DNA from: Patescibacteria group bacterium
GTDB lineage: Bacteria; Patescibacteriota; CPR2; UBA1875
Direction of reading: 5' to 3'
DNA length: 64,000 nt
NCBI GenBank assembly: GCA_041737595.1
Contig: JBGSRK010000014.1
Span: forward strand, 118 to 64,117
Position numbers and translations under genes: made by a program. Positions 1-23,937 of the stretch are shown one piece after another (positions within the stretch are counted from its first letter, which is position 1; every line of letters starts with the position of its first letter). Under the pieces are notes generated by a model, which saw only the letters and a program-made list of their open reading frames with translations, did not search any database and had not been told where the DNA came from.

Positions 1-8
1 TTGTTCCA

Positions 9-100: not shown

Positions 101-403
101 ATCTTCCTTCGTCCATGCACCATGGCTTCATTGCTGTTGCCATTGTATTTTATCAGAGAGCTGCATCAGTATCAGAACCTCTCATAAAGGAAGACAAGGA
201 GTTTCTTTTCCTTCTTTTGGAAGGGAGTAACAGTCCGTCTACCAGCCGTAACCGATAAACCGATGAGACGTCACCCGTAAACATGATATATGTAAATCGT
301 GGGAATTGCTATTTTGTAGCGAAAGGCTCCGCCTTGCAAGAGCAAGACGGAGCCTTGGGATCCCAAGGAACCAAGTTCCAAGTGACCAATGTAGGCCTTC
401 GGC

Positions 404-1342
404 CTACGCCAGAACTCCCAGAGGACGGACCGCGTGGCTGCGCCAGCGACTGCCGGAAGTGTCGTCCACGACGTTCGCGAGTCCACCGTAGTCGGAGCGA
501 CCACCGATAAAGCGGGACGAAGCACTCTTGAAGAACTCCTCGTACCAACACCAGGTGCTGGTGGTGCCGTCATCCTTGCGCGGCATGTTCATGTAGAGTT
601 GCGGGATGATGTTGGCCTCGATAGCCATCTCCAAGCGAACCTGAGTCGGCTCGAGGCCGAGGCGCTCAGCAATGGCCGCCTTCAAGTGGTCTTCCCACTC
701 GATGGAGGAGATGCCGAAGCGACTGGTCTGCGGACCGTACTGGTAGCGTGCGAGCTTACCATCCTTGCGGAGGCGGTCGATCACGCGACCCATGAAATCA
801 CGGTCCTTGGCGAACATCTGCTTGCCGTCGTTATAGTTCGGCTTCTTGCGGGTGTCGATGAGGACGACCCTTCCTGGGAGAAGGTCACCACTCGCCTTGA
901 CGAGGGTTCCATCATCGTTACGGTGATACAGGTTGCCGTTTTCGGCCTGATCCCAGTACCAGCTCTCGGGCTGGATCTTCCAGCCATCAAACGACGTGTT
1001 ACGCATGAGGACAGTCGACGGCAAGAAGTGGACTTCAAGGCCCAGCTTCTTCCACTCGGCGATCTTCGCGTAACCGTAGCGCTCGATGGTCTCCCGCATC
1101 AGCGTGAGGTCGAACTCCTGGCCAAAGAAGGCCAGGTGGGCGACACGTTCCGCGTCGAGAAGGTTCATGACCCACTCGTCGGGGATGAATGCCGAACTAC
1201 CGTTGATCGCTTGCGCGATCTTGTCCAGTGTTGCCGCGTTGTTCTTGGCAACTTTGAACACCTCCATGGTGACGCCGCGCTTTACGAGCTTGCGCTCAAA
1301 GTCGGCGCCGTCGGATAACGATTCGAACAATTTCTCAGACAT
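404..1342 (-). CDS. Hypothetical protein (312 aa), high GC (about 58%). Its C-terminus carries the FKSASSRFIGGRSDYGGLANV motif. Likely horizontally acquired.
   Basis: Long ORF with GC3-rich codons. An RBS aggagatgg lies upstream of the ATG at 1342. The stop codon sits inside the hairpin gtaggccttcggcctac. Confidence 0.6.
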   Translation of the reverse strand: MSEKLFESLSDGADFERKLVKRGVTMEVFKVAKNNAATLDKIAQAINGSSAFIPDEWVMNLLDAERVAHLAFFGQEFDLTLMRETIERYGYAKIAEWKKLGLEVHFLPSTVLMRNTSFDGWKIQPESWYWDQAENGNLYHRNDDGTLVKASGDLLPGRVVLIDTRKKPNYNDGKQMFAKDRDFMGRVIDRLRKDGKLARYQYGPQTSRFGISSIEWEDHLKAAIAERLGLEPTQVRLEMAIEANIIPQLYMNMPRKDDGTTSTWCWYEEFFKSASSRFIGGRSDYGGLANVVDDTSGSRWRSHAVRPLGVLA

Positions 1343-1607
1343 GTGACCATCTCCTATGGTCGTGGCATCCTCTGATGCCTCCGCTCCCTTATTGGAGCAG
1401 CAAAGAAATTACGAATTTCAATTTCATAAGTTCTTTGCCACCCCAATTTGGGATTCTGTAAATTCTGACTTGCAAGGTACAATAGTACGTGATTATAGCA
1501 TAGTTTATATGGTTCTGTCAAGATTTTTGTGGCTAACTCTACGGATTCCCACTCAAAAACACTCTCGGATTGATGGGAATGTGGAATACATTGATTTGAA
1601 AGTGTAG

Positions 1608-2101
1608 ATGCGGACCCGTAGACCAACCTGTATCTCCACGAGTGCCGACAATAGTGCCCATTTCCACCTCTTGCCCCTTAACAACACTTATTACAATAGA
1701 ATATCATTCTGGCAGAAGAAGAAAGATCAAGCCGATGTTGATCTGAAAGAGCTTTATAAATTTCGACAGTCACTTATTGAGAAGAATATTTCTGGCGTTT
1801 ACTCAGACGATATTTTCAAGGAACAAAATGCGATACTTGAGGGAAAGATAAAGGACGTTATGTTTGTAAAAAGTGATGAAGTAATGACAAAGTACAATCT
1901 TGAGTCAATTACGAAGTTTATAGAAAACAAGTTTGAAAACCTCGCTGAGACATACAAAAACTCCAACCTAGATCAGGTCAGAGCTCTTATGTGTTCGATA
2001 TTTCCATCTGGATTGCAGTGGAACTATTCGGGCTATTCGAACACCGATATTTCCCCTTTCTACAAGGGAATTATGACTATGAAAGATGGGGGTGTCTCTT
2101 T
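1608..2101 (+). CDS. Hypothetical protein or gene fragment. The ORF as drawn runs into tRNA-Glu, and its N-terminal third is low complexity.
   Basis: Six-frame ORF 1608..2150 on the plus strand. AT-rich, native-like codon usage. The true start may be internal. Confidence 0.25.
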
Positions 2102-2176
2102 TGGTAGTCCCAACGGGAGTCGAACCCGTGTTACTAGAATGAGAATCTAGCGTCCTAACCACTAGACGATGGGACC
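2102..2176 (-). tRNA. tRNA-Glu, anticodon CTC, 75 nt, with the CCA end encoded.
   Basis: Reverse complement reads GGTCCCATCGTCTAGTGGTTAGGACGCTAGATTCTCATTCTAGTAACACGGGTTCGACTCCCGTTGGGACTACCA. It folds as a cloverleaf with a 7-bp acceptor stem, loop TTCTCAT with U33 and A37, and T-loop TTCGACT. Confidence 0.85.
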
Positions 2177-2421
2177 TCGTCGGAATCATTTGTCAGGTTT
2201 GGACTTTGGCTTAAGCCAAGTCTACATTTTTTCAAGATCTCTCCTCTCCAATCAAAATCGACAGATTTTAACTAAAAAGAAACTAATTAACCAAACTGAC
2301 TTCTATAAATTTTATTGCGAAATTGATTTTAACAAAAATAACTCTCTTATTCAATCATTCAATATAATTAATAAGAAACCATCTAGAATATTTTATTAAA
2401 AAGTTAATTATAAAATAGTTA

Positions 2422-2829
2422 TTATTCGGCGAGTTCTGCTTGTTCTGTTGATAGGCCATCAAGAAACTCATTAATTTGTTTTTTTTCTTCTTCACCCATT
2501 TCAATATAACTTCCAAAAAAATCCATCCAAACAATTTCTGGTTCAACTGGCATCCCCATTTCAATGAATTCTTGATAATACCCAGTATTGTTATCTAAAT
2601 ATGACTGGAGTAATGTTGTTTTCTTTTCAATGTCTTTAATACTATATAATTTTGCTTGTAGTTCTAATATTATTTGTTGGTATTGTTCTTCTTGATCTTT
2701 TATTTCTTGGCTGGTTTCTGCAGTAATTTCAGGTAAAGCTTGTTTTAAAATATCTATTCTATCAATCTCTGCTTGTATTTCCTTATCAGTATTTATTTCT
2801 GGTGTGCCTTCTACTTCTAATCCATCCAT
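2422..2829 (-). CDS. Hypothetical acidic protein (135 aa).
   Basis: ORF with native AT-rich codon usage. Confidence 0.5.
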   Translation of the reverse strand: MDGLEVEGTPEINTDKEIQAEIDRIDILKQALPEITAETSQEIKDQEEQYQQIILELQAKLYSIKDIEKKTTLLQSYLDNNTGYYQEFIEMGMPVEPEIVWMDFFGSYIEMGEEEKKQINEFLDGLSTEQAELAE

Positions 2830-2865
2830 AATATTCTCCTTTTATAAAACTATAATATCAAATAA

Positions 2866-2898
2866 TAAAATAATCCGCCAGTTGGCGGATTATTTTAT
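2866..2898 (-). terminator. Rho-independent terminator downstream of the small zinc-ribbon gene.
   Basis: Hairpin aatccgccagttggcggatt at 2872-2891 with T/A-rich flanks on both sides. Confidence 0.6.
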
Positions 2899-2935
2899 TG
2901 AAGAGATATCTCTCAAGTTCTCTTTAAATTTCGAA

Positions 2936-3082
2936 TTATGCTTTACCCATAATTCTGTACATTCCTGTACCACATTCAGGACATTTGCCCTTCATTGCTT
3001 TTCGTCCGTTTTTCATTGTTACTTCTTCTGCATCAGCCATTTCTCTTTTGGCTTTACATTTTACGCAATATCCTTCTGCCAT
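2936..3082 (-). CDS. Small zinc-ribbon protein (48 aa), DUF5679-like. It reads MAEGYCVKCKAKREMADAEEVTMKNGRKAMKGKCPECGTGMYRIMGKA. It is absent from the supplied ORF track because it is under 60 aa.
   Basis: Hand translation. RBS ggagg lies 6 nt upstream of the ATG. Two CxxC pairs are present. It is followed by the terminator above. Confidence 0.6.
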   Translation of the reverse strand: MAEGYCVKCKAKREMADAEEVTMKNGRKAMKGKCPECGTGMYRIMGKA

Positions 3083-3223
3083 CTTTGCCTCCTTTCAAGG
3101 TTTAGACTTAATAATACGCTTGATATAAGAATGAGCCACCGCTTTTAGCTTGTCAAGCACAATTTGTGGATAAGTAAGATAACTTGTACCCCTAAATTAT
3201 ATACTTTCCCCTTTATAAAGGTA

Positions 3224-4144
3224 TTAATTGCTTTTTTTAAATTCTGTAAAAATATCTACTGCAGCGACTGCTCCTTCGCTTGCGGCCGTAACTATTTGTC
3301 TTAAACCATTTGAATTTGTAGTAATATCTCCGGCTGCCCAAACACCTTTTACAGAGGTTTTTTGTGCCACATCTACGATAACTAGATCTTTGTCTGTTGT
3401 TTTGAGCCCTAATGATTTATAAAGTATTGTCTGAGGTGTTTGCCCAATCTCTATAAATACGCCATCTAATTTTAATTCATTTTTTTTACCTTCAAGTAAA
3501 ATACTTTCTACTTTGTCTACTCCATGAATTTCTTTAACATTTGTTTCAAATAAAATTTCTATTCTTTTATCTTTTTTTAATTTATCTTGCCAAGCTGGTT
3601 CTGCGCGGAGCTCAGGTTTTCTTACAATTAAATAAACTTTCTTTGCAATATCAGCAAGATAAAGGGCAGCAGTGACAGCAGAATCTCCACCACCAACAAC
3701 GGCAACAATTTTTTCTCTATAAAAAAATCCGTCACAAGTGGCACAATACGCAACTCCTTTACCTTCAAGTTCGTTTTCCCCTGGCACACCTAATTTATTT
3801 CTTGCCATTCCTAATGCTAAAAGAACAGATTTTGCTTGATATTCAGCGTTTCTACCTAATAAAGTAAATCCTTCTTTTGTTTTAATGATCGATTGTATAT
3901 CATCAGATTTTGGGCTTGCCCCAAAACGCCTTAGTTGATTAAGCATTCTGTCTGCAAGATCGTGTCCTGGTGTAACATCTTCAAGCCCAGGATAATTTTC
4001 AATGTCATAAGACTCTGACATATTACCACCAGGTGTTTGTCCAATTATCTCAAAATCTACTTTATATCTTGCAGCATAAATTCCAGCAGATATCCCTGCT
4101 GGTCCAGCTCCTACAATTACTAAATCATGTTTCTCTCTTTTCAT
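3224..4144 (-). CDS. trxB: Thioredoxin-disulfide reductase.
   Basis: GAGPAG FAD motif, the CATC redox-active motif, and a second NAD(P) GGGDSA motif. Confidence 0.9.
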   Translation of the reverse strand: MKREKHDLVIVGAGPAGISAGIYAARYKVDFEIIGQTPGGNMSESYDIENYPGLEDVTPGHDLADRMLNQLRRFGASPKSDDIQSIIKTKEGFTLLGRNAEYQAKSVLLALGMARNKLGVPGENELEGKGVAYCATCDGFFYREKIVAVVGGGDSAVTAALYLADIAKKVYLIVRKPELRAEPAWQDKLKKDKRIEILFETNVKEIHGVDKVESILLEGKKNELKLDGVFIEIGQTPQTILYKSLGLKTTDKDLVIVDVAQKTSVKGVWAAGDITTNSNGLRQIVTAASEGAVAAVDIFTEFKKSN

Positions 4145-4218
4145 AATAACCTTTCTAACAACGTCTTATTATAACACAACAAATATTTTGAATTTTAAAC
4201 GAAAATTATGGCCTAATA

Positions 4219-5124
4219 CTAAGCAATCCCTGCAAACCCGAAAGACATTAATCCTAATACGACTGCAGATAAAAGTAGTGCAACTCTGAAATTAAAAAGG
4301 TGACTTCTTGAGGCGTTGAGACCTAATCTTCTAATCATTATTCCATCTACTATAATTAATCCAAAGATAAAAAACCAAAGCGCAAAATAAGGAGCCTTAG
4401 AAGGGAATGTAGTATTGTCTAATGAAAATTCTGGGATTAATTTTTGGCTACCAAGTACATTTTGTGTTTCTGAATCTTTCGCACTAGCAAAAGCAGTTTT
4501 AGGTTCACCGAAAATTTGGACAACGACTGTGGTTAAATTTCCGTTAATTTTACCACTACCAACCGCAACACCAATTTCTTGAAATCTATTATTTAAAATA
4601 TTTTCTTTGTGAGTAGGGCTATTCATCCATGCCTTAACTGTTTCGTCTGAGTTTGAAAATCCTCGGGCTAAATTTTCTCCGGCAAGTAAATATTGATATC
4701 CTGTATTCGAAACAAAATCCCATGCTGTTTCACCATTTGGTCCCGAGTGATCCCAATAATTTTTATTAAACATATCTTTGAGTTTTAATTCAGCGGCTTT
4801 GTCTAAAGTTTCATTTTCATATAGTTCATTAAGATTAATATTATCTCTCTCTTTATTCGAAAGAATAATAATGTTTTTTGCAATTGCTTTTGCATCTCCA
4901 TTCATTATTACAGGACCAGAATACATTGTTGTTCCCATCATAAATTGTGAAACGAGTAGCGCTATTGAATATAAAGATAGTGCTTTGTGACGGAAAGCAT
5001 GAGGGCGATAGGCATTCCCTTTATGAGGAACAAATAAATGTTTGAACAGTTTTTTAATTCTTTTGAGCATTATCCCCTGCAACTTTTTTAACTGTAGAAA
5101 ATAGTGATTCTGGAGTTGAATCAA
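4219..5124 (-). CDS. Membrane-anchored CAP/SCP/PR1-like domain protein. The start is probably internal, because the ORF overlaps the upstream receiver gene.
   Basis: Residues GENLARG ... HSGPNGE ... NSPTHKENIL look like CAP-domain motifs. N-terminal and C-terminal hydrophobic helices are present. Confidence 0.55.
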   Translation of the reverse strand: MIQLQNHYFLQLKKLQGIMLKRIKKLFKHLFVPHKGNAYRPHAFRHKALSLYSIALLVSQFMMGTTMYSGPVIMNGDAKAIAKNIIILSNKERDNINLNELYENETLDKAAELKLKDMFNKNYWDHSGPNGETAWDFVSNTGYQYLLAGENLARGFSNSDETVKAWMNSPTHKENILNNRFQEIGVAVGSGKINGNLTTVVVQIFGEPKTAFASAKDSETQNVLGSQKLIPEFSLDNTTFPSKAPYFALWFFIFGLIIVDGIMIRRLGLNASRSHLFNFRVALLLSAVVLGLMSFGFAGIA

Positions 5125-5434
5125 CTTTTAAAACAAACTCATCTGCACCATATGTAAGACATTTTTCTCGATTATATTTATCTCCATAGTTTGTATAAAT
5201 AACAATTGGTGTTTTAGCAGTTTTTCCATCTTGGCGTAATAACTCCAAAACCTCAATACCAGATAGGCCTGGTAACATTAAATCAAGAACAATAATGTCG
5301 GGGTTAGTTTCTTTAGCCATTTGCACCCCACCACTTCCTTCGTGGCAAATAGTAACGTTCCAGCCTTCAGATGTAAATTTTTGAGAATACATTGCAGAAA
5401 GTTGTTTATCATCTTCTATTAATAATAATTTCAT
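5054..5434 (-). CDS. Single-domain response regulator (receiver only).
   Basis: The DD...D...K receiver pattern: MKLLLIEDD, DLMLPG, and the phospho-acceptor Asp context. Confidence 0.75.
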   Translation of the reverse strand: MKLLLIEDDKQLSAMYSQKFTSEGWNVTICHEGSGGVQMAKETNPDIIVLDLMLPGLSGIEVLELLRQDGKTAKTPIVIYTNYGDKYNREKCLTYGADEFVLKVDSTPESLFSTVKKVAGDNAQKN

Positions 5435-5442
5435 ATAACTCC

Positions 5443-5625
5443 TTATTTTAATAAAAATAGCAGTCCAATTATTGCATGGAAAATTGCAATAATTAATAAT
5501 AAAACCCCACCAATTTTATGCCAGCTAAAAGGAACCTTAATTTTACCCAAACCAGACAAAACTTGGAAGGTTAAGTAACTTAAAATAAAGACTCCACCTA
5601 AGATAATAATATATTTTATTTGCAT
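5443..5625 (-). CDS. Small hydrophobic membrane protein (60 aa).
   Basis: ORF with two predicted TM helices. Confidence 0.35.
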   Translation of the reverse strand: MQIKYIIILGGVFILSYLTFQVLSGLGKIKVPFSWHKIGGVLLLIIAIFHAIIGLLFLLK

Positions 5626-5659
5626 AAATATATTATAGCAAATATTAACTATTTTTACG

Positions 5660-6313
5660 TTATTTAAGAGTTCCGACTACTGGATATTTTGTGATAGATG
5701 ATTTTACATGTCTAGAATAAAAAGCATCTGTAAGATCTACTCCAGCGGGATGACCATAATGGTAACCATTTACAAAAACACTTGTAAGGTCATATACAGT
5801 TCCATCTATTGCAAGATAAGCAGGTTGATCATTTTTCCCATCATATTGGGCAAGTTCATCTGTAGTATAATATTTTTCAGTTTGAGTGTTTGAGACATTT
5901 GTTGTGGTGTCTTTAGTTATAATACTAGTAGTATTATCTATTTGAGTTGTTTGGTCTTGATTTGTAATTGCACTAACACTCTCTGTTTTTGGTTTATAAA
6001 TATATATTAAATCAACATATAAAAATCCTAAAACAAATATTAAATAGAATAATATAAGAAAAATTTTGCTAAAAATATTCCAAATTTTCCAACGCATAAA
6101 TGAAAGTCTTATCGCATAAAATGAATGTATAGTAAAAAAGATTAACCCCAAAATTGGTAAAAGATTATTATGGAGATTTGTAGCTATACTTGGGTCTATT
6201 ATTCCCTTTGTCATTCCAAAGCCACTAATAAAATAGGTAAACATAACAAAAAGCAATCCCCAGGCAGCAACCCTATCAATTTTACACATATAGTAACTCA
6301 GACATTTACTCAA
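5660..6313 (-). CDS. Membrane protein with a C-terminal cytochrome b5-like heme/steroid-binding domain.
   Basis: N-terminal TM helices. C-terminal DELAQYDGKND...GYHYGHPAGVDLTDAF resembles the b5 HPGG motif. Confidence 0.5.
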   Translation of the reverse strand: MSKCLSYYMCKIDRVAAWGLLFVMFTYFISGFGMTKGIIDPSIATNLHNNLLPILGLIFFTIHSFYAIRLSFMRWKIWNIFSKIFLILFYLIFVLGFLYVDLIYIYKPKTESVSAITNQDQTTQIDNTTSIITKDTTTNVSNTQTEKYYTTDELAQYDGKNDQPAYLAIDGTVYDLTSVFVNGYHYGHPAGVDLTDAFYSRHVKSSITKYPVVGTLK

Positions 6314-6322
6314 TGGACCCTC

Positions 6323-6994: not shown

Positions 6995-7003
6995 ATTTAC
7001 TCC

Positions 7004-9465: not shown

Positions 9466-9480
9466 AGTCTCTCTTATCTT

Positions 9481-9534: not shown

Positions 9535-9595
9535 TTGCATATTTAGTATATGTTAAAAATAGATTCTGAATCAAGTTTAGAATTACAAATAACAT

Positions 9596-15091: not shown

Positions 15092-16321
15092 TTAGTGAAG
15101 AAATTTATCTAGTTCTTTAGCTTCTTCGCTTACCAAAAGAGACATCTCGTTATAACCAAGTAAACTAAGGCCATCAAGACTCCTAACACGCGAAAGAGCA
15201 ACATAACCAAGGCCGTAGGTAAAAGCACGAGAAAGGTCAATTTCTGCATAATCAAGGGTCATCCCCTGGCTCTTATGAATTGTAATTGCCCAAGCCAAAC
15301 GCAAAGGGACCTGTTCTATCCAAGCATTTGAATTTGGGTCATCAGCCCCCCACTTAATTGGGGCCGCTATAATTTCTTTACCTTTAAAAGTACGCACAAT
15401 AGGATAACCTTTTTCTGGGTCAAAGCCGATTATTTCTCCTGTGGTGCCATTAACATAACCTTTTGGAAAGTTATTAGAGACAAACATTACAACAGCTCCA
15501 ACTTTAAGTAATAATTTTTCGGGGGCCATGCAACCTTTTTTCATTTGAGTGACAAAAAATTTCTCACCACCAGCTTTCATTTTGAAAGTAATTTCTTCCT
15601 CTGGAATTAATTCTAATCTTACTAAATTATATTCGTCTACGTTTGAATTATGTGTAAAAAGTTTTGTCGGAATAATATTTTTTGAAAAGGGATATTTAAA
15701 ACGTTCTCTTAATAATTGACAAGAATCTTCTGTGACACGTGATTCCCTTATCTCATTTAAGAGTCGATATAAATCATTACTTTCGTTTTGACGATATTGC
15801 TTTTCAAGATAACAAACAGCTAAATCCATCTGTGACCAAACAGCAGATTGATTTATAAAATCTCCTCCATTTTTAACTCTTGAAACTGGTGGAAGCTGGA
15901 AAAAGTCTCCACAAAGAACAATTTGTAAACCTCCAAATGGCCCAAAATCTGTTCTAACTCTTCGACAAATATCATCTAACATATCAAGACGATGAGCGTG
16001 AAGCATTGAAATTTCATCAATAATTAGTACCTTAGCTTCTTGAATTCTTTTAATTGCTTGTTTGTTATGAGTAAATAATTTTTTAATGTCAGATTTGGTC
16101 ATTTTATCTTTGATACCCATTCCTGCCCAAGAATGAATAGTAATGCCTCCTAAATGAGTGGCCGCAATGCCAGTTGATGCCGTAATGCCAACAGGAATCT
16201 TTTTTTTATTTAAATATTCAATAAATTGGTTTAATAAATAAGTCTTTCCAGTACCAGCTTGACCAGTAATAAGAGTATTACGTCCACTGACTAATATTTC
16301 AAATGCTTCTTCTTGTGTCAT
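15092..16321 (-). CDS. PIF1/RecD-like SF1 DNA helicase.
   Basis: Walker A GQAGTGKTY, DEISM Walker B, and the helicase C-terminal motif QGMTLD. Confidence 0.8.
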   Translation of the reverse strand: MTQEEAFEILVSGRNTLITGQAGTGKTYLLNQFIEYLNKKKIPVGITASTGIAATHLGGITIHSWAGMGIKDKMTKSDIKKLFTHNKQAIKRIQEAKVLIIDEISMLHAHRLDMLDDICRRVRTDFGPFGGLQIVLCGDFFQLPPVSRVKNGGDFINQSAVWSQMDLAVCYLEKQYRQNESNDLYRLLNEIRESRVTEDSCQLLRERFKYPFSKNIIPTKLFTHNSNVDEYNLVRLELIPEEEITFKMKAGGEKFFVTQMKKGCMAPEKLLLKVGAVVMFVSNNFPKGYVNGTTGEIIGFDPEKGYPIVRTFKGKEIIAAPIKWGADDPNSNAWIEQVPLRLAWAITIHKSQGMTLDYAEIDLSRAFTYGLGYVALSRVRSLDGLSLLGYNEMSLLVSEEAKELDKFLH

Positions 16322-16507
16322 TGAGCTATTATCTATTTTATTGACCCTTTTTACTAGTAGACAATATATATTTGATTGTTAAATATGTGTGTTATTTATC
16401 TAACTAAGTAAGCGCAGGGACTAAATAAAGTGAAGACCGCCTTTCAGCGGCCTTCTTTAGGTTTCCGTTGATAAGCGGTCAGTTGCATTTTATGGAGGAT
16501 CTTGGCC

Positions 16508-17266
16508 TTATCCGAAGAGCCGGCAGTACAGAGCGTAACCTGTTATACCTAGTACCGCCAATCCTGCGATAAGAAGGAACATTCGTCCTTTTGCTCGCGC
16601 TTCTTGGGCGGCAAGATTGGAATAGTAGGCTTGTCCAGCGGATTCGGGGAAGTACTCATCAAGAAGCATCTCCTCTTCTAATGGACTCATAGTTCTGGAC
16701 TGCATGAACATCGGTGTTTCCTTCCCAGCCGGGTTGGCTAAAAGCAAAAACCACAGAACTTCAGTCAATACCTTGTAGCCACCACCTTGAGCAATGTTGC
16801 GGTTTGAATCCCCGCCCAACAGCTCATTAGACGAATCCAGCCATTTCTCCCGTTCTTCACGGAAGTAATAGCCACCGACAGCATTAGAGAACCGTCGTTC
16901 CCAATCGCTCCCACCTTCTCGCTTGCCAGCTAGATAAGCTAGAACGTCTTCTGCGACTTCGATGCCGTAAGGCATATTGTCGCGCATTCCCATGATGGAA
17001 AGACCACCCAGCTCCTCATGAGGCTTCTCCTGGAAAACTAACCTTTCTGCCTCGGATGGATAGAGCCTTTCCAGATTACGGATGTAGTCCTGGTAACGCT
17101 CCTCTTTGATCTTTGCCATACGGGCGTCGTCCTCGGGTCCATAACTAACGAGATACCTGGCTGTAAGTAGGCCATTCCAGTCAGCCATGGGGTTGATACA
17201 ATTGCACGTTCCTCCTTCTCCTCGGTTTACGAACGGACAACCGTTACACATCGAAAATCCCCACAT
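16508..17266 (-). CDS. Hypothetical protein (252 aa) with a Cys-rich N-terminus (CNGCP...CNC) and a C-terminal TM anchor. GC is about 52%. Likely horizontally acquired.
   Basis: GC-rich ORF. RBS aggagga upstream. A hairpin with T-tract lies downstream at 16436-16460. Confidence 0.55.
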   Translation of the reverse strand: MWGFSMCNGCPFVNRGEGGTCNCINPMADWNGLLTARYLVSYGPEDDARMAKIKEERYQDYIRNLERLYPSEAERLVFQEKPHEELGGLSIMGMRDNMPYGIEVAEDVLAYLAGKREGGSDWERRFSNAVGGYYFREEREKWLDSSNELLGGDSNRNIAQGGGYKVLTEVLWFLLLANPAGKETPMFMQSRTMSPLEEEMLLDEYFPESAGQAYYSNLAAQEARAKGRMFLLIAGLAVLGITGYALYCRLFG

Positions 17267-17460
17267 GATATCCTCCTAGGTTCTGAATCAAGAAGGGTCA
17301 CACTATTTTTAGTGTAACCCTCGGATTGAATTCCATTGATATATTAGCATAAAAATTACTTAGCAGAAAGTATTATGAGCTCCATAAACAGAAATATATT
17401 GATATAATTGACCTATTCAACGAAGTAAAACAGGCCAGAATTAAATAAAAAATCATTAAT

Positions 17461-18132
17461 TTATATCATATATTTTTCAGGAAACATGCGGCTGTAAGTA
17501 TAGTTCATTGAAGTTAGAAAATTTAAAAATGGGATAAATACAAAAGGGACAAGACCTAAAAGAGTAATATCAAACATCCAAGAAATATACATTCCAATTA
17601 TCATAATTGGTACAACAAAAGTTGAAGTGTGGTGGTGATAATATTTTTTAGAAACAATTTTAATTCTTTTTGAAAATTCCCATATAAATAATGGCCAAAG
17701 TAAAGTTAACATTTTTGGATCTAGTTCAGTTTTTTTCCCATCCAACGCTAAAAAAAATCTCCAGGTACGGTACATCCAATAAAACGGGAAAAGGCCAAAT
17801 GTTATAAGAGTTAATAAAATAAATTGAGAAGCCGTGATAACAATAACTTCTTTTTTAATTTTATTTGCAAACTCCCCTGCTTTTGCACAATCAACCCAAT
17901 CATGTTTACATTTTTTTGAATCTAGAATTTCCCGACAGATTGGACAAATTTCCTCAGAACAATAAAGGTGATGTAGTTTATTCTTTTTTACACCACATTT
18001 TTTACAATCTTTTTCAGCTGGGAGTCTTTTTGCGCTTTTCCCGGCATCATTAATTATATAGTCAAAATCACAACCAGAGCTCTTGCTGATTGTTTTATTA
18101 CACAAAATACATTTTTCAACTTCTTTTACCAT
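17461..18132 (-). CDS. Membrane protein with N-terminal zinc-ribbon motifs and four C-terminal TM helices.
   Basis: CILCN...CKKCG...CPICR followed by hydrophobic segments. Confidence 0.5.
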   Translation of the reverse strand: MVKEVEKCILCNKTISKSSGCDFDYIINDAGKSAKRLPAEKDCKKCGVKKNKLHHLYCSEEICPICREILDSKKCKHDWVDCAKAGEFANKIKKEVIVITASQFILLTLITFGLFPFYWMYRTWRFFLALDGKKTELDPKMLTLLWPLFIWEFSKRIKIVSKKYYHHHTSTFVVPIMIIGMYISWMFDITLLGLVPFVFIPFLNFLTSMNYTYSRMFPEKYMI

Positions 18133-18225
18133 TTGTGAAGAGATTATACTGCTATTATGCCTTTAAAACAAGATAAAAACAGTATTGTCATAAAAAAAGA
18201 TCAATATTTATGATAAAATAGGCCG

Positions 18226-18807
18226 ATGGCAAATATAGGAATAGATTTAGATGAAGTACTTGCGGATTTTAATACATCCTTTATTGAATTTCATAATAAA
18301 AAATATAACTCAAAATTAAACCCAAATAATATAAAGGATTATTTTTTAAGAAATTTAGTTGATATATCTGCAGAAGAGGAAATGAAAAGATTGATTGAAT
18401 TTTGCGATACAGGTCTTTTAAAAACAGTTTCCCCCTTCCCAGAAGCCATAATAAGTGTCAAAAATCTTTTAAAAAATAATAATTTATATTTAATTACAGC
18501 ACGTCCAAATTTTATGGAAGAAGATACCTTGGAGTGGGTAGAAAAATATTTCCCAAACACATTTAAAGAGGTCATTATTACAAGTCATGTTTTGGATGGT
18601 AAAATTGAAAAATCAGAGGTTTGTCTTTCTAATAATATTAATTATATGATAGAAGATAATAGCTATTATGCTAATGAATGTGCTTCTTTTGGTGTCATTT
18701 CTTTTTTACTAACACGATCTTGGAATATCAATGATACTTTAAAATCGGGGGTAATTAGAGTTTCGAGTTGGAAAGATATTGAGGATAAAATAAATGAAAA
18801 TATTTGA
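18226..18807 (+). CDS. 5'(3')-deoxyribonucleotidase-like HAD-superfamily hydrolase.
   Basis: N-terminal IGIDLDEVLADF matches the NT5C/HAD motif I. Confidence 0.65.
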   Translation: MANIGIDLDEVLADFNTSFIEFHNKKYNSKLNPNNIKDYFLRNLVDISAEEEMKRLIEFCDTGLLKTVSPFPEAIISVKNLLKNNNLYLITARPNFMEEDTLEWVEKYFPNTFKEVIITSHVLDGKIEKSEVCLSNNINYMIEDNSYYANECASFGVISFLLTRSWNINDTLKSGVIRVSSWKDIEDKINENI

Positions 18808-20011
18808 TGTTTGTGTAGTTGGTTCTGGACCTGCAGGGCTTATGTCTGCAATAACTGCTGGCAGTGCGGGACGATCTGTTATTCTTTTAGAAAAAAATGG
18901 AAAAATAGGCCGTAAAATTCTCGCAACTGGAAATGGCAGATGTAATATTACAAATAAGAATATAAATATTTCAAGATATCACGGAGGGGATAAAAATTTT
19001 ATCACTGAAGTAATAAATAAGTTTGATCAAAATAAAACTATAAATTATTTTGAATCATTAGGCATTTTATTAAAAGAAGAAGACAAGGGAAGAATTTTCC
19101 CAGTCACAAATCAAGCACAAACAATTGTGGATGCTCTTACACATGAACTTGAAAAAAATAATGTGAAAATAGAACTTCAAACTGAAGTAAAAAACATTGT
19201 AAAGGAAGATGATTTTATAATTACTCTTATTTCTGGTAATGTTATTTTTGCACGTAAATTAATATTAGCGACTGGTGGGAAAGCAGCACATCAATTTGGT
19301 TCTTCTGGTGATGGTATATTTTGGGCAAGAAATTTTGGTCATACAATTACTCAAATTCATGCAGCCCTTTGTCCTATTGAGGTAAACGAAAGTTGGGTTC
19401 GTGATATACAAGGGTTGAGAGTTGAAGCAAAATTAACTGCTATGGTAGATAATAAAAAAATTGCAGAATTTTATGGTGATACTCTTTTCACCCATTTTGG
19501 GATATCTGGCCCTGCTCCAATGGCATTTTCCGGGGATATATCACCCTTGATAAATAAATCTGAAATAAAAATAATAATAGATTTATTCTCAAATATAGAG
19601 GTTTTAGAGCTAGATAATAAACTGGAAAAAATATTTAAAAATGCAGGTAAAAAATCTGTTAAAAATTCCTTAAGTGGAGTTATCCCCCAAAATCTTGTAC
19701 CAATTATCCTTAAAATTATAGAAATTGATGAAAATAAAAAAGCCGCTGAGATATCAGCAAAATACAGAAAAAATATAGTTAATGCATTAAAAAATTTAAC
19801 TATCACGGTTAAATCAATAAGGCCCTTAAAAGAAGCACAAGTAACAAGGGGCGGGGTTGAACTTTCTGAAATTAACTCAAAAACACTTGAATCAAAAATT
19901 ATAAAAAATTTATATTTTGCAGGTGAAATTATGGATGTTGATGGAGACTCTGGTGGATTTAATCTTCAGTGGGCCTGGTCTTCAGGGTATTTAGCGGGTA
20001 ATAGTATTTAG
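18794..20011 (+). CDS. BaiN/HI0933-like NAD(P)/FAD-dependent oxidoreductase.
   Basis: GSGPAG dinucleotide motif, ATGNGRCN, and a GG..LQWAW C-terminal region. Confidence 0.8.
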   Translation: MKIFDVCVVGSGPAGLMSAITAGSAGRSVILLEKNGKIGRKILATGNGRCNITNKNINISRYHGGDKNFITEVINKFDQNKTINYFESLGILLKEEDKGRIFPVTNQAQTIVDALTHELEKNNVKIELQTEVKNIVKEDDFIITLISGNVIFARKLILATGGKAAHQFGSSGDGIFWARNFGHTITQIHAALCPIEVNESWVRDIQGLRVEAKLTAMVDNKKIAEFYGDTLFTHFGISGPAPMAFSGDISPLINKSEIKIIIDLFSNIEVLELDNKLEKIFKNAGKKSVKNSLSGVIPQNLVPIILKIIEIDENKKAAEISAKYRKNIVNALKNLTITVKSIRPLKEAQVTRGGVELSEINSKTLESKIIKNLYFAGEIMDVDGDSGGFNLQWAWSSGYLAGNSI

Positions 20012-21402
20012 TCTAAATTATCTAAATATGGTTTAATAAAACTACTTCTAGATGGGTGTCTAAGTTTTAATAAAACCTTTGATTCTATTTGTCTTATTCT
20101 TTCTCGAGTAATTCCAAATATTTTTCCAATGTCATCATATGTATGAGTATCTTCTCCATTTAAACCATATCTAAGTTCTATTATTTTTTTTTGTTTATCC
20201 GTAAAATCGTTAAGTAATACATTTAAATCTTCTTTTAAGAGTTTTTTGATTACCAACTTAGCTGTATCCTCAGATAATAATTGTTCATCAACTTCTTCTG
20301 ATTCGACATCTAGTGGCTCTTCTGCCATATTTCTATAACTCTTACTTTTTGCAATTTCGAAGTCTCTAGTTGGTATGCCTTTAAATTTTCTAGTTTTATT
20401 ATCTTTAACTTCTTCTTTTATTGTTTCTAATCTAGCTCTTTCTTTATTTAAATTATCAATAAGTGGTATTAAATCACTAATTATAGACTTATATTCTTTA
20501 ATACGAAAGCTATTAGATAGTGCATTTCCAATAATAAGTTTATCCCTCCATCTGTTTATAATATCTGTGCAAGTCTTTTCGCGTTTTTCTCTTAATATAT
20601 CAAGTTTTCGTCTTGCTTTAGCTATCTCCTCTTTAACCTCAGCAGCTTCTCTTCTTTTTACAATAAAAGTTTTTTCTTTATCTGTTTTTAAATCTTTTAG
20701 TTTTTGTAATTTTTCTTGGTAATCTTTGAGGAGTATGTCCAGTTCTGCTTCAATTGAATTTTCTTCATCAAGAGAATCAGTATCTAAAATTTCTTGATAT
20801 AATTTAGATATATCATCTACATCAAGCTCTCCTAAATACGAACGTTTATTCCAAATTTCATAATTAAGTTTACGGGAAAGAACCTCGATTGCATTTTCCA
20901 AATCTTTTTCTAATATTAATAATTCTTTTTGTGCAGAAATTGTTGCATCGTGTTCTTGGACTTCATCAGATAAATTTTCATAATGTTCAATATTTATATC
21001 TGGATCTTTTTCAGTGTATCTTTTGAATGAATTCTTTATACTATAATAAATTTTAGAATATAAATTTAAATTATCTTCATTAATATTATCAAGTTCTTCT
21101 ACATATTCTCTGATTGCTTCAATTAATCCAGTAATTCCTAATTGTCTTAAATCTTCAACAAATTGAGCTTTTTCAGCATATTCTTCAACAAACTTGTCAA
21201 CTAAGGGTTCATATAAATAAATAAGACGATCAAGCGCCTCTTCGTTTCCAGCTTTTAACTCTTTTAATAAGGAAAATATAGTTTCTGAGTCTCTATAACT
21301 TCTTTCATTGCGTTTTTTTTGTGCTATAAAATCACTTTCGGTATTTTCTAATCCAAGATGTTCCATATACCAAAGTATATTAGTTAAAGTAAAAATAAAC
21401 AA
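20008..21402 (-). CDS. Atypical sigma-70-like protein. It has a region-2.1/2.2-like N-terminal part, a coiled-coil K/E-rich segment of about 250 aa, and a canonical region 4 HTH that ends in RHPSRS.
   Basis: C-terminal ELRYGL...TYDDIGKIFGITRERIRQIESKVLLKLRHPSRS closely matches RpoD region 4.2. The middle of the protein lacks regions 2.3-3. Confidence 0.6.
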   Translation of the reverse strand: MFIFTLTNILWYMEHLGLENTESDFIAQKKRNERSYRDSETIFSLLKELKAGNEEALDRLIYLYEPLVDKFVEEYAEKAQFVEDLRQLGITGLIEAIREYVEELDNINEDNLNLYSKIYYSIKNSFKRYTEKDPDINIEHYENLSDEVQEHDATISAQKELLILEKDLENAIEVLSRKLNYEIWNKRSYLGELDVDDISKLYQEILDTDSLDEENSIEAELDILLKDYQEKLQKLKDLKTDKEKTFIVKRREAAEVKEEIAKARRKLDILREKREKTCTDIINRWRDKLIIGNALSNSFRIKEYKSIISDLIPLIDNLNKERARLETIKEEVKDNKTRKFKGIPTRDFEIAKSKSYRNMAEEPLDVESEEVDEQLLSEDTAKLVIKKLLKEDLNVLLNDFTDKQKKIIELRYGLNGEDTHTYDDIGKIFGITRERIRQIESKVLLKLRHPSRSSFIKPYLDNLD

Positions 21403-21411
21403 TATTTAAAA

Positions 21412-21470
21412 AAAGAAAGACCCGCACTGTATGCGCGGGATCTCCCCTTATACATTAGTGCGGGTAGTGA
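21412..21470 (-). terminator. GC-rich hairpin terminator with U-tract at the 3' end of the high-GC operon 21479-22781. A closely related element lies at 22886-22945.
   Basis: acccgcact ... agtgcgggt 9-bp stem. On the minus strand it is followed by tctttcttttttt. Confidence 0.6.
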
Positions 21471-21478
21471 TTGAGGTG

Positions 21479-21841
21479 CTATGCAACCAGGGCTTCGTCT
21501 GGCAGCATCTTGATGGGTTTCTTCTCCCAGTGATCGCACTTAGGAGGTAGAACGAAGGTTGTGCAGGCTACACCTGGGCTCCTTGGGTTAAGGAGTAGAT
21601 AGTAGGTGTAACGTGAAAGCTGATGGTTCTTCCTTGTACGATCAAGGATCGTCTTTCTGACATTCTTGTGTCGCTTCCCCATATCGTGATGTGAAATAGC
21701 GACATGTACCTCCCGAACATCAGGTTTGTACAAGATAGTTGTCTTGACATTGATGTTTTGAATCTTCTGCTCCATTGTTGCGAGCATCTCCTCTGGCGAT
21801 TGCAAGAACAGCGCCTCCCCGAGTTGTGGATTTCCAGGCAT
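21479..21841 (-). CDS. Hypothetical protein (120 aa), high GC. It is the last gene of a four-gene operon.
   Basis: Its ATG directly follows the stop of the upstream small ORF. The overlapping alternative-frame ORF 21568..21921 has junk-like R/S/C composition. Confidence 0.5.
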   Translation of the reverse strand: MPGNPQLGEALFLQSPEEMLATMEQKIQNINVKTTILYKPDVREVHVAISHHDMGKRHKNVRKTILDRTRKNHQLSRYTYYLLLNPRSPGVACTTFVLPPKCDHWEKKPIKMLPDEALVA

Positions 21842-21940
21842 CTATCGTTTCTTACGTGGTTTAGTGGATGGAGGTGATTTGCCCTTCTTTTGTTTGGGTT
21901 TTTTGTTTTCACGACCTCCACGGTTTCTGGGATGTGCCAC
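21842..21940 (-). CDS. Lys/Arg-rich micro-protein (32 aa), VAHPRNRGGRENKKPKQKKGKSPPSTKPRKKR, with a GTG start.
   Basis: Strong RBS aaggagg 7 nt upstream of the GTG. The stop is immediately followed by the next ATG. Confidence 0.3.
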   Translation of the reverse strand: MAHPRNRGGRENKKPKQKKGKSPPSTKPRKKR

Positions 21941-21952
21941 TAGAGCACCTCC

Positions 21953-22330
21953 TTAGTCATACTCACTGCTTCTGATTTGATCGGCTTTCTCGGTTTCAAT
22001 CTCCCTTTTGCTGAGTATGCCCGACTTGTTGAGCAGTTCATAAGCATACTCGCCAATCAGATTAGATGCAACATCTTCAAGCGAGTTTAAGGGTGGTTTT
22101 TGATTGAGTCCATAATCCCTTATGTTCTCAATTGCAGAATCCTCTGCTTCGATTCCAGATTCCACCCGATCAATCCGCTCAATGAAGGATAGGAGATACA
22201 AACCTCCCTTATTTTCGACGCAGGCGGTCAGCATGATCATTTCAAGATCATAGTCCGAGTCCCCGATCATCTTTATGATATGGGTCATAATCTCGGTTAC
22301 TCTCCCTATTACCCATTCATTGACTTTCAT
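21953..22330 (-). CDS. Hypothetical acidic protein (125 aa), high GC.
   Basis: ORF that overlaps the upstream gene by 14 nt, suggesting translational coupling. Confidence 0.5.
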   Translation of the reverse strand: MKVNEWVIGRVTEIMTHIIKMIGDSDYDLEMIMLTACVENKGGLYLLSFIERIDRVESGIEAEDSAIENIRDYGLNQKPPLNSLEDVASNLIGEYAYELLNKSGILSKREIETEKADQIRSSEYD

Positions 22331-22781
22331 GTTCCCCCCTACTGTGTTTTGCCCTCTTGTGGATATTAGTGAAGTGTTCCAAGATCTTTTTAGAGACTAA
22401 AACGAGAAAATTATTAGTCTCTTTAAAGATGTCTGGATCGATAGCTTCACCAGCAATGAAGTCTTCGAGGGTTTCATGAAAATCAGTAATAGCATCGATT
22501 GGGTCTGGATAGTCCTCCTTGATTGCTTCGAGAACTTCGGAATACCAACCGATCTTCTTGGCGAGGAAGAAGCAAAGTGCCCCTTCATCTACTAGTAGGT
22601 CCTCTTCCAAGAGAAAAAGCCATTCGATGGTGTTTGATGTAGTAATAAGTATTTCGAGATGTTCGTCTACAATCTCATCTGCTGCACCACCGATAATGCG
22701 GGCCATTTCGAGGACCGCAAAGCCACTCTCTATATCACGTACGATTGATGAGGAAACGGTAACTGTTACATCGCTGTACAT
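22317..22781 (-). CDS. Hypothetical acidic protein (154 aa), high GC. First gene of the operon.
   Basis: RBS gaggtgagg upstream. An AT-rich promoter-like region lies at 22790-22850. Confidence 0.5.
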   Translation of the reverse strand: MYSDVTVTVSSSIVRDIESGFAVLEMARIIGGAADEIVDEHLEILITTSNTIEWLFLLEEDLLVDEGALCFFLAKKIGWYSEVLEAIKEDYPDPIDAITDFHETLEDFIAGEAIDPDIFKETNNFLVLVSKKILEHFTNIHKRAKHSRGEHESQ

Positions 22782-22885
22782 AGTACCTCACCTCATTTCG
22801 TATCATTGGAAGTTGGGTCTATTTTATTACAAAATATAAAAGAAGCAAGGGATACATATAAATATATTTAAATATTAGTTAGTAA

Positions 22886-22945
22886 ACTATTTAAGAAAGA
22901 CCCGCACGTGTGCGAGTCAATCTTAATCGCTTAGTGCGGGCTAGA
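22886..22945 (-). terminator. GC-rich hairpin terminator of the EEP gene. The stop codon is embedded in the stem. It shares tatttaa-gaaagacccgcac ... ttagtgcggg with 21412-21470.
   Basis: cccgcac...gtgcggg stem plus a ccgccactaatgatggcgg hairpin. On the minus strand it is followed by tctttctt. Confidence 0.55.
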
Positions 22946-23857
22946 ATCCGCCATCATTAGTGGCGGGAATGGGTATTCGAGCGTTGTAACAACTGGATAA
23001 TGGTCAGATGGGTATCTACCAGAACGACTGTATTTGATTATCTGCCCACCAGAGACCTTCCATTCTGGTGATGCAAATATCATGTCGATTCGTGGTCCGC
23101 CAGAACCAGTAAAACCATGGAATGTTCCAATGGGTTTATCTGATTCTTCGATACAATCACGAAGTAGGTCGAAATTTCTTGCAGACTCGACCGAGTTACT
23201 TCTAAGAACGTTGAAGGTTGATGAATCTGCTGATTCATTGAAGTCTCCGCCAAGAATAACAAGATTACCGTTGTTGTTATGCACCCAACTCGCGAGCATT
23301 CTGACTGACTCTTTTCGCGATTCACTTGATTCATGGTCAAGATGAGTTGAGGCAACTGCAATTGGTTGTGATTGAAATTCATCCCACAGCGTTAGAGAAG
23401 TGTAGCAACGAGGTATTCTATTCCCCCAACTTACTGATTCAGTAAGTTTAGGAGCGTTTGAAAACCAGAGTCTTTCCGTTGTGTTGACCTGAACTCTAAA
23501 TCGGTCTTCACGAAAGAAAATAACTGGGTATCCTCGCCATTGCTTCCCAATACCGGCTGTTGCGACTCGGTAACCTAGAACTTTTGATTTCAGGTAACTG
23601 AGTTGCATCGGGGTTGCTTCTTGAATCATGATGATGTCTGGGGCTACTTCTTTGATGACATCAACGACCATTGTTCTCCTGAAAAGCCAAGAGTCTAATC
23701 CGTCAAAAGCCATACTTGTTCTGATATTAAAGCTCATGACGATAAGCCCATCTCTTTCGGGCCAGACCATCGGTTCAGTTCCTTGTTGTATTCCACTCAA
23801 AGGTACTACTGCAATAAGCAGCAATACTATGGCTAAAAGCCTTAGTTTCCTGCTCAT
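22931..23857 (-). CDS. Secreted endonuclease/exonuclease/phosphatase (EEP) family protein, GC about 50%.
   Basis: Signal peptide MSRKLRLLAIVLLLIAVVPLSG. EEP motifs: IMIQE, GGDFN, and SDHYPV at the C-terminus. Confidence 0.75.
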   Translation of the reverse strand: MSRKLRLLAIVLLLIAVVPLSGIQQGTEPMVWPERDGLIVMSFNIRTSMAFDGLDSWLFRRTMVVDVIKEVAPDIIMIQEATPMQLSYLKSKVLGYRVATAGIGKQWRGYPVIFFREDRFRVQVNTTERLWFSNAPKLTESVSWGNRIPRCYTSLTLWDEFQSQPIAVASTHLDHESSESRKESVRMLASWVHNNNGNLVILGGDFNESADSSTFNVLRSNSVESARNFDLLRDCIEESDKPIGTFHGFTGSGGPRIDMIFASPEWKVSGGQIIKYSRSGRYPSDHYPVVTTLEYPFPPLMMADSSPH

Positions 23858-23937
23858 CGCTTACTCCTTTTCTTGGGAGATTGTGATGGTATTTTAAATT
23901 AATAAACCTACAAATGCAAATTAAACAATTTAAGATA

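Follow-up and report, generated by a model that had tools for sequence, protein, structure and literature searches.

Three GC-rich accessory modules, including part of a diversity-generating retroelement, in the AT-rich chromosome of a Patescibacteria group bacterium

Results

GC-rich units in an AT-rich chromosome

The stretch of DNA analysed here (hereafter the window) comprises 64,000 nucleotides of a Patescibacteria group bacterium (assembly GCA_041737595.1, contig JBGSRK010000014.1, positions 118 to 64,117), in which a small set of GC-rich genes stands out, namely the target gene of a diversity-generating retroelement (DGR), a gene for a 252-aa tail-anchored protein, and a gene for a secreted hydrolase of the endonuclease/exonuclease/phosphatase (EEP) fold that is accompanied by an operon of small-protein genes. 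The remainder is ordinary chromosome, encoding among others SecA, a P-type ATPase, MreB, MurA, a sortase and a Ctp protease, and the proteins of host-like composition find their best matches in loci of named candidate phyla radiation (CPR) genomes (41-54% identity), which is suggestive of such an affiliation and no more. Mean GC is 0.324 over the whole window and approximately 0.31 for the chromosome itself.

An original prediction, made from the letters of the sequence, had described four islands of 48-58% GC. The GC-rich islands are real, but only the first two (Table 1) reach such values: the three open reading frames (ORFs) within island 3 (21479-22781, minus strand) have a GC content of 0.43-0.48 and a GC content at third codon positions (GC3) of 0.43-0.55, and island 4 is in the same range (GC 0.44). 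As islands 3 and 4 moreover form one syntenic module (see below), the window holds three units instead of four. The strong GC3 bias that had been claimed is evident. It ranges from 0.37 to 0.78 in the island ORFs, as compared to 0.182 +/- 0.027 (maximum 0.245) in the remaining 56 non-overlapping ORFs, which makes the island genes outliers by 7-22 standard deviations. The predicted immediate return to AT richness was found as well: the boundaries are sharp, with the shift in GC complete within 50-100 nt, the units are spaced 4-15 kb apart, and even islands 3 and 4 are separated by an AT-rich spacer of 149 nt (22782-22930). All units lie on the minus strand and a Shine-Dalgarno sequence precedes the first gene of each, again as predicted.

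A DGR target gene on island 1

The gene on island 1 had been listed as encoding an unknown protein of 312 aa; that it is GC-rich holds, but its identity had been missed, for it is the variable-protein (target) gene of a DGR. The protein has the C-type-lectin fold that serves as a criterion for DGR targets, and the end of the gene is formed by a variable repeat (VR) that matches a template repeat (TR), of which 95 of the 120 nt lie within the window. The other 25 nt, avd and the gene for the reverse transcriptase (RT) lie beyond the left end, on contig L001 of an independent assembly of the same sequencing run (run SRR28170473, Logan contigs). Downstream of the 312-aa gene, L001 carries a bAvd gene and then an RVT_1 gene, and both families are also found next to the target on L111, a relative from a different assembly. 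The 120-nt direct repeat (L001 884-1003 and 1321-1440) is 84% identical, with the TR located 437 nt downstream of the VR. The two copies differ at 19 positions, 15 of which are adenines in the TR. In relatives the differences fall at TR adenines in 20 out of 23 cases (L111) and in 20 out of 21 (the VR of L110 compared to the TR of the window), and the TRs of the window and L111 differ at just four positions. Every VR ends with GGGAGTT and both TRs with GGTAGTT, so that a G stands opposite a T in all copies; judged from these sequences, this fits a pair of initiation-of-mutagenic-homing elements (IMH and IMH*). The VR ends 9 nt before the stop codon. Three samples (L111-L113) share one identical VR, and a scan of the window with the TR, ignoring adenine positions, recovered solely the known VR.

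Directly after the IMH lies a GC-rich inverted repeat, TAGGCC-gaag-GGCCTA, that holds the stop codon. Such a repeat is a described feature of DGRs (PMC5758913), and the hairpin is the DGR inverted repeat and not, as had been proposed, a plain terminator. The transcription stop of the target gene is probably a second, 15-bp GC-rich hairpin about 50 nt further on; the region around both (300-420) folds with -61.6 kcal/mol (z = -6.3). Upstream, the gene has a promoter of its own (TTGACA-N18-TATAAT, with the -35 at 1516-1521 and the -10 at 1492-1497) and a 5' untranslated region (UTR) with a 34-nt imperfect hairpin (1385-1453) and the Shine-Dalgarno sequence AGGAG.

The RT contains the motifs IGNLTSQ and YCDD. 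Its best relative in the PDB is a 328-aa RT (8ub7-8ube, E 2e-40), which we take to be the Bordetella bRT, and RTs of group II introns follow at 1e-20. The L111 copy of the accessory protein matches bAvd (PF22296) with E 2e-16. In the window strain avd (L001, around 1756, minus strand) carries a TAA near its 5' end where L111 and L112 have CAA, which shortens the ORF from about 110 aa to 59 aa. Directly 5' of the TR a structured RNA was found that resembles Rfam RT-16: the match to RF03019 spans the full model and scores 37 bits (E 0.002), and 39 bits at the equal position in L111 and L112. With all three cassettes below the gathering score of 50 bits, this is a resemblance and membership is not established. 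RNA motifs of the RT series have been proposed to function in retroelements, including DGRs (PMC5737381).

The system thus shares with the DGRs of the Patescibacteria/CPR clade (prototype: mtd-avd-TR-brt of Bordetella phage BPP-1) the C-terminal VR on a C-type-lectin fold, the adenine-specific TR/VR pair with a one-base IMH/IMH* difference and a GC-rich inverted repeat behind it, and a DGR-type RT (IGxxxSQ, YxDD) accompanied by a bAvd gene, which in the window strain has the nonsense codon noted above. Its atypical GC is likewise not without precedent, as a GC content deviating from that of the host has been reported for about 20% of DGRs (PMC5758913). It departs from the described DGRs in the position of the RT-16-like RNA (5' of the TR rather than between TR and RT), the early nonsense codon in avd, the GC3 of the target (0.78) relative to that of its own RT (0.43), and the lack of a phage context in searches of IMG/VR and PHROG.

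Relatives and genomic contexts of the DGR target

A word-indexed search yielded a target protein family of 102 members, the few named ones being Patescibacteria, Berkelbacteria and Parcubacteria. Scanning species-representative genomes gave 24 target loci, 16 of them in CPR genomes, five in Poribacteria and three in small metagenome-assembled genomes labelled 'Gammaproteobacteria'. A DGR clade confined to Patescibacteria has been described (PMC8144416). Close relatives of the target (88-92% amino-acid identity) are present in four other assemblies (L110-L113), with 87-90% nucleotide identity across the cassette homology in L110 and L111. The cassette is kept in L111 and L112, where homology begins at window position 1531; the unit therefore carries its own promoter and 5' UTR. 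L111 holds the complete cassette, L112 stops within or just after avd, so that the RT falls outside it, and L113 is a contig of 1,273 nt with the target gene alone.

In L110 an orphan copy of the target (corresponding to window 196-1407), lacking TR, avd and RT, is situated between the genes for fructose-bisphosphate aldolase and pyruvate phosphate dikinase. It is bracketed by a 62-nt direct repeat (1858-1919 and 3323-3384, 95% identical) that is a copy of the 3' end of the aldolase gene and looks like the scar of a homology-assisted insertion or homologous recombination. The flanks in L110 and L111 have a GC content of about 0.42-0.44, and their hosts consequently differ from the 0.31 GC genome of the window. 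The same L110 contig contains a 77-nt element in two copies (68-144 and 3444-3520, 79% identical), with a hairpin and GGAGGGG, upstream of the genes for triosephosphate isomerase and pyruvate phosphate dikinase; it may be a leader common to both genes, and a search of Rfam gave no match.

Foreign composition extends on both sides of the target gene. The RT, with a GC3 of 0.43 as compared to 0.18 for the host, is foreign to the window genome as well. On the other side a gene fragment of foreign composition reaches up to the 3' end of a tRNA-Glu(CTC) gene. This fragment could have been left over from the C-terminal part of a large serine recombinase; the one indication is that it matches the coiled coil of SPbeta YokA at an insignificant E of 1.8, and searches of Pfam, PHROG and NCBIfam gave no match. 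The arrangement resembles that of tRNA-linked genomic islands in that a foreign segment touches the 3' end of a tRNA gene beside a possible recombinase remnant, and differs from it in that an intact integrase is missing and the far end of the island lies beyond the contig.

A single-gene cassette for a tail-anchored protein

The second unit, located between genes for a Pif1 helicase and a DUF4234 protein (16.3-17.5 kb), consists of one gene, encoding an acidic protein of 252 aa for which Pfam, NCBIfam, PHROGs and PADLOC gave no match. An AlphaFold2 model of it has a mean predicted local distance difference test score (pLDDT) of 66, and its best fold matches (MbcA and an Xre-RES antitoxin) are not significant. 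An exhaustive HMMER search of 1.84 billion representative proteins returned only four relatives, so that the family numbers five including the window protein. In L027 a gene with 73% identity (GC 0.55) follows another GC-rich ORF (0.59) among unrelated neighbours in a background of 0.40-0.43. The leader hairpin is kept there with one compensatory pair, and both GC-rich ORFs of L027 end in the 3' element of about 65 nt that is found at the end of the window gene. In L116 a gene with 46% identity and a zinc-ribbon ORF (both with a GC content of 0.57) are followed immediately by AT-rich DNA. The other GC-rich ORF in L027 (1493-2129, 190 aa, GC 0.59), which lies in tandem with the relative of the window gene, matched no known family.

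A secreted EEP hydrolase and an operon of small-protein genes

The third unit (islands 3 and 4) starts with the gene for a 308-aa protein with a signal peptide and a complete EEP domain (PF03372, E 1e-18, 68.1 bits with a cut-off of 24.5, profile positions 1-225 of 225). Among its relatives of solved structure are uncharacterised EEP proteins and a mannosyl-6-phosphatase, and for that reason roles as a nuclease and as a phosphatase are both possible. The full-length domain and N-terminal signal peptide are shared with the known secreted EEP hydrolases (PF03372; e.g. the mannosyl-6-phosphatase BT3783 of Bacteroides and DNase I-like nucleases); unlike in those, the gene is linked to genes for three small proteins, of 154, 125 and 120 aa, for which no family was found in Pfam, NCBIfam, PHROG or PADLOC. 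We infer that these two acidic proteins and one basic protein could be partners or inhibitors of the EEP enzyme.

That the two islands form one module follows from L028 (another run), where an EEP gene with 64% identity is followed by the terminator seen in the window and by genes for 151, 125 and 120 aa in identical order, with 69-79% nucleotide identity to the window and a GC content of 0.43 throughout. Of the four-gene operon that had been proposed, the three genes are hence kept elsewhere, but the fourth is not: it is a short ORF (21842-21940, minus strand; VAHPRNRGGRENKKPKQKKGKSPPSTKPRKKR) for a very basic peptide of 32 aa, situated between the genes for 125 and 120 aa behind a Shine-Dalgarno sequence of its own, and it is not among the genes conserved in L028. 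L028 itself has a 646-nt insert (802-1447) between the EEP and 151-aa genes, which contains an ORF of 47 aa and a GC-rich stretch that may be structured; a search of Rfam gave no match.

More distant EEP relatives (46-48% identity) are GC-rich single genes (0.52 and 0.54) in backgrounds of 0.42-0.44 with other neighbours (L029, L117), and those in named organisms (Planctomycetota, Verrucomicrobiota, Acidobacteriota) reach only 33-36% identity. L117, from another metagenome, contains several single-gene GC-rich cassettes (0.50-0.54) in its region 1861-6058 against a background of 0.43, and the terminator of its EEP gene reads TAA-CCCGCC...GGCGGG-TTTT.

Leaders and structured 3' ends

The GC-rich leaders that had been ascribed to all units are present in islands 1 and 2, but the leader of the EEP gene is AT-rich. 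Two-tier hairpins with a trailing T tract form at the 3' ends of the units (z -2.4 to -5.7), and the best reading is that these are strong intrinsic terminators which travel with the genes. Own hairpin terminators, as predicted, are thus found at 16432-16455, 21421-21439 and 22899-22918, the exception being the stop-codon hairpin of island 1 discussed above. The related claim, that in two cases the stop codon sits inside the stem, is correct for island 1 (392-406) and applies only loosely to the EEP gene, where TAA follows CCCGCAC. Both terminators of the third unit are bounded by CCCGCAC...GTGCGGGTCTTTCTT, which is found nowhere else in the window. Across contigs, the arms CCCGCAC..GTGCGGG occur after unrelated ORFs (window islands 3 and 4, L028, L116) and GACCGCC..GGCGGTC occurs in island 2 and twice in tandem in L027. 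No known RNA element was found in the leaders and terminators of islands 2-4.

Table 1. Features of the three GC-rich units and adjoining elements, with positions in the window.
Feature	Position	Strand	GC	GC3	Remarks
Template repeat (TR)	1..95	-			95/120 nt in window; remainder, avd and RT on L001 beyond left end
Structured RNA resembling Rfam RT-16	91..231	-			directly 5' of TR; RF03019 full-model match, sub-threshold
GC-rich hairpin, 15 bp	323..356	-			3' of VR; inverted repeat I4, 93% complementary
GC-rich inverted repeat	392..406	-			directly after IMH, holds stop codon; sequence and folding
DGR target gene, variable protein 312 aa	404..1342	-	0.59	0.78	island 1
Variable repeat (VR)	413..532	-			ends in IMH (GGGAGTT; TR has GGTAGTT); TR/VR comparison
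Promoter and 5' UTR of target gene	1343..1531	-			sequence; inverted repeat I1; homology with L111-L113 to 1531
Gene fragment of foreign composition	1608..2101	+	0.40	0.46	
tRNA-Glu(CTC)	2102..2176	-			ARAGORN and Rfam; 3' end abuts foreign segment
Terminator of island 2	16432..16455	-			inner hairpin and T tract; part of ~65-nt 3' element shared with L027
Gene for 252-aa acidic protein	16508..17266	-	0.50	0.51	island 2; N-terminal CxxC..CxC, C-terminal membrane helix
Leader of island 2	17267..17345	-			-10-like TAATAT, hairpin 17295-17320, Shine-Dalgarno AGGAGG
Terminator of small-gene operon	21408..21470	-			two-tier, CCCGCAC...GTGCGGGTCTTTCTT; inner hairpin and T tract 21421-21439
Gene for 120-aa basic protein (pI 9.5)	21479..21841	-			operon gene 3; 64% identity over 74 aa to L028 3' end
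Gene for 125-aa acidic protein (pI 4.5)	21953..22330	-			syntenic 125-aa gene in L028
Gene for 154-aa acidic protein (pI 4.4)	22317..22781	-			operon gene 1; 76% identity to 151-aa gene of L028
Terminator of EEP gene	22890..22945	-			CCCGCAC...GTGCGGGTCTTTCTT ends; inner hairpin and T tract 22899-22918; TAA follows CCCGCAC; kept in L028
Gene for secreted EEP-fold hydrolase, 308 aa	22931..23857	-	0.44	0.37	island 4; signal peptide, PF03372

Direction of substitution in the target gene

The polarity of substitutions was determined by parsimony for the target copies of the window, L110 and L111, at the 805 positions outside the VR. In the lineage of the window 27 changes from GC to AT were found vs 5 in the reverse direction (binomial p 1e-4), and the corresponding counts are 23 vs 13 for L110 and 17 vs 9 for L111. 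The target gene is thus losing GC in all three lineages and does so fastest in the most AT-rich host. Amelioration has begun in the window and is far from finished, and the pattern fits a recent origin in a GC-richer setting. In the comparison of island 2 with L027, 85 sites have A or T in the window but G or C in L027 and 47 show the reverse; between the EEP module and L028 there is no GC/AT asymmetry.

Discussion

Probable acquisition from a shared flexible pool

The above makes it likely, and we hold it with some confidence, that the chromosome, itself of about 31% GC, holds in this window three separately acquired, GC-rich accessory modules drawn from a shared flexible pool, with the anatomy of a DGR in the case of the first. 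Horizontal acquisition, as such already part of the original prediction, is favoured as the best explanation, given the atypical composition of the genes, which for DGRs is an accepted sign of transfer (PMC5758913), and the presence of the same genes in different contexts: for each unit there are relatives in other metagenomes that have different neighbours and likewise exceed their flanks in GC (L027, L116, L029, L117, L110). The excess of GC-to-AT changes (27:5) points in the same direction. Composition, DGR anatomy, the varied contexts of the relatives and the bias in substitution are direct observations, whereas the route of transfer, the donors and the roles of the payloads are inferred.

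In the scenario that we propose, module 1 (1 to approximately 2101) is the near end of a DGR beside a tRNA-Glu gene, the RT of which would miscopy the adenines of the TR, so that the last 120 nt of the target gene (the VR) would be rewritten from the TR and the ligand-binding face of the protein diversified. Module 2 is a single-gene cassette for a tail-anchored protein of a five-member family, and module 3 a secreted EEP hydrolase followed by an operon for two acidic proteins and one basic protein. As each brings along a promoter, a Shine-Dalgarno sequence and a long hairpin terminator of its own, the modules should be expressible wherever they are inserted. They would have been taken from a flexible pool that circulates among CPR-type genomes and exceeds the receiving chromosomes in GC, and in this very AT-rich host they would now be decaying towards AT.

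Both the occurrence of DGRs in CPR bacteria and an atypical GC content of DGRs have been described before (PMC8144416, PMC5758913), and the present case accordingly belongs to known kinds. Its implication would be that an extremely AT-rich, reduced genome gathers ready-to-express accessory genes, the products of which are presumed to be a binding protein of hypervariable sequence, a protein anchored in the membrane and a secreted hydrolase, and the polarised substitution counts provide a direct view of ongoing amelioration. In practical terms, a lone GC-rich gene at the end of a CPR contig may be a DGR target that lost its RT at an assembly break. The sole point that goes past textbook expectation is the apparently conserved compositional split between target and RT.

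Several observations weigh against this reading. The early nonsense codon in avd implies that diversification may have stopped in the window strain. Module 1 is joined to the chromosome in the deposited assembly only, as the Logan contigs break at 1415 and 2439. For modules 2 and 3, neither flanking direct repeats nor an intact integrase was found. No sister genome was found either, the best metagenome relatives of a flanking HI0933-like gene being 54-58% identical and non-syntenic, nor any genome in which a close relative is compositionally at home. Finally, the target is GC-rich whatever its host and the linked RT is not, so that recent arrival alone is no explanation of its composition.

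A possible intrinsic and maintained GC content

The last point raises the question whether the high GC could be intrinsic to the target and maintained, by selection at the mRNA or DNA level or by GC-biased gene conversion at recombination-prone loci, with no recent arrival at all. The GC3 of the target exceeds that of neighbouring ORFs at 18 of the 20 CPR-like loci (mean +0.19, Wilcoxon p 1e-5), and the GC-rich copies constitute one subclade (L024, L006, L008, L012, L003, L110, L111 and the window) in which the target has a GC3 of 0.60-0.83 over hosts of 0.18-0.55 and RTs of the same cassettes of 0.30-0.43. The target is also better conserved than the RT (91.5% vs 80% nucleotide identity). All of this would be expected under maintenance. 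A composition held at equilibrium is, however, difficult to reconcile with the loss of GC in three close lineages (27:5, 23:13 and 17:9), and the Poribacteria copies are slightly below the GC of their own genomes, which is expected of a shared pool and not of a fixed optimum. Avoidance of adenines across the target was considered as a cause of its high GC and rejected, because A3/(A3+T3), the share of adenine among third-position A and T, equals that of other genes with the same GC3, i.e. the avoidance is no stronger than in any gene of equal GC3. On balance we regard maintenance without recent arrival as unlikely.

The split between target and RT may reflect a mobile lineage with a composition of its own, swapping of targets, or selection. 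We would give no more than a small chance to the most far-reaching version, in which a conserved GC split is maintained within one CPR DGR lineage, or targets are swapped far more often than RTs, and the cassettes with recurring two-tier hairpin ends (window, L027, L116, L117) represent an undescribed exchange system of CPR bacteria. If the split were maintained, retrohoming or target expression would select for a GC-rich target, for instance through annealing or invasion of the cDNA or through protection from off-target priming.

One donor or several

The original prediction went further than horizontal acquisition as such, in that it had all four segments arriving recently from a single, much GC-richer organism, for instance the host cell of an episymbiont. 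Strongly raised GC3 in all units, the GC-richer ancestor implied by the decay towards AT, and distant EEP relatives in mid-to-high-GC phyla (Planctomycetota, Verrucomicrobiota, Acidobacteriota) are what such a donor would leave behind. The units nevertheless differ from each other in GC (0.59, 0.50 and 0.44) and in codon usage (between-unit correlations r -0.3 to 0.2), and the close relatives likewise form islands, in surroundings of 0.40-0.45 GC. As far as the best matches can be placed taxonomically, the family of island 1 is mostly CPR, the five-member family of island 2 has no relative in a named organism among the 1.84 billion representatives, and the named EEP relatives reach only 33-36% identity. 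The idea of one much higher-GC donor is not borne out by the present evidence and appears improbable, the relatives being CPR or metagenomic sequences that are islands themselves. There was no sign of a phage origin, i.e. the target family and the 252-aa and 154-aa proteins have no relatives in IMG/VR and no matches to PHROG were obtained, nor of defence systems, as no island protein matched PADLOC.

A possible mobilisation by the 3' ends

Each unit closes with a long two-tier hairpin, identical ends recur behind unrelated ORFs, and stop codons adjoin the outer stem, and one could imagine that the units are cassettes of a dedicated site-specific system that reads the structured 3' ends (integron-like, or by hairpin-directed single-strand transposition). 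The units indeed share with integron cassettes and CALINs (clusters of attC sites lacking integron-integrases) a compact, mostly single-ORF build and a recurring structured 3' element with the stop codon beside it. They differ in having their own promoters, in being scattered rather than arrayed, and in ending with hairpins and T tracts that lack the R''/R' (RYYYAAC/GTTRRRY) cores of attC. The T tracts and folding are those of ordinary intrinsic terminators, the window has no attC core sites and no cassette array, and no integrase or IntI was found among the window proteins scanned. A search for target-site duplications flanking islands 2-4 revealed just short AT-rich chance matches, and the single clear scar, the 62-nt repeat in L110, resembles homologous recombination. 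A site-specific system of this kind is thus very unlikely.

Assembly support

The independent Logan contigs bear on the remaining question, i.e. whether the islands are part of the chromosome, and the check for a chimeric assembly supports islands 2-4 in full. L002 equals window 16060-17677 (100% identity) and comprises island 2 plus portions of both flanking host genes, and L114 equals window 17957-26338 (100% identity) and comprises islands 3 and 4 with approximately 3.5 kb and 2.5 kb of host sequence at the sides. Islands 2-4 and their flanks therefore lie inside independent contigs and are truly embedded in the AT-rich chromosome, not chimeras. In the case of island 1, situated at the end of the deposited contig (64,167 nt), L001 begins at window 1415, shares 1415 nt with the window (100% identity) and extends 1296 nt past its left end, and the next host contig (L115) ends at window 2439, so that window 1415-2439 is in no independent contig and the junction is uncovered. 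An artefact of assembly or binning, in which pieces of GC-richer organisms were fused to an AT-rich contig, could draw on that terminal position and on the two breaks, but it is already refuted for islands 2-4 and is highly improbable for island 1 as well, where the GC step at about 1400 is internal to the cassette and kept in other samples (L111-L113) and where the segment 1531-2101 is of intermediate composition and terminates at a tRNA, like real islands.

Other observations in the host part of the window

Directly upstream of the EEP module (23938-25065, minus strand) lies a gene of host composition; the surface protein that it encodes combines a signal peptide with an SdrD-B/SpaA-like domain, a linker rich in proline and a membrane anchor at the C-terminus. 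On the other side of the module (20008-21402, minus strand) a 464-aa sigma-factor-like protein is encoded, of which region 4 is the sole recognised part, the long charged N-terminal and middle parts being unmatched. A 106-aa ORF at 9220-9540 (minus strand) adjoins tRNA-Gln (9145-9219); its GC is flat over the codon positions (0.38/0.40/0.36), it may be noncoding, and a search of Rfam gave no match. The minus strand holds 61 of the 66 non-overlapping ORFs and the cumulative GC skew declines steadily across the window, which probably lies as a whole within one replichore.

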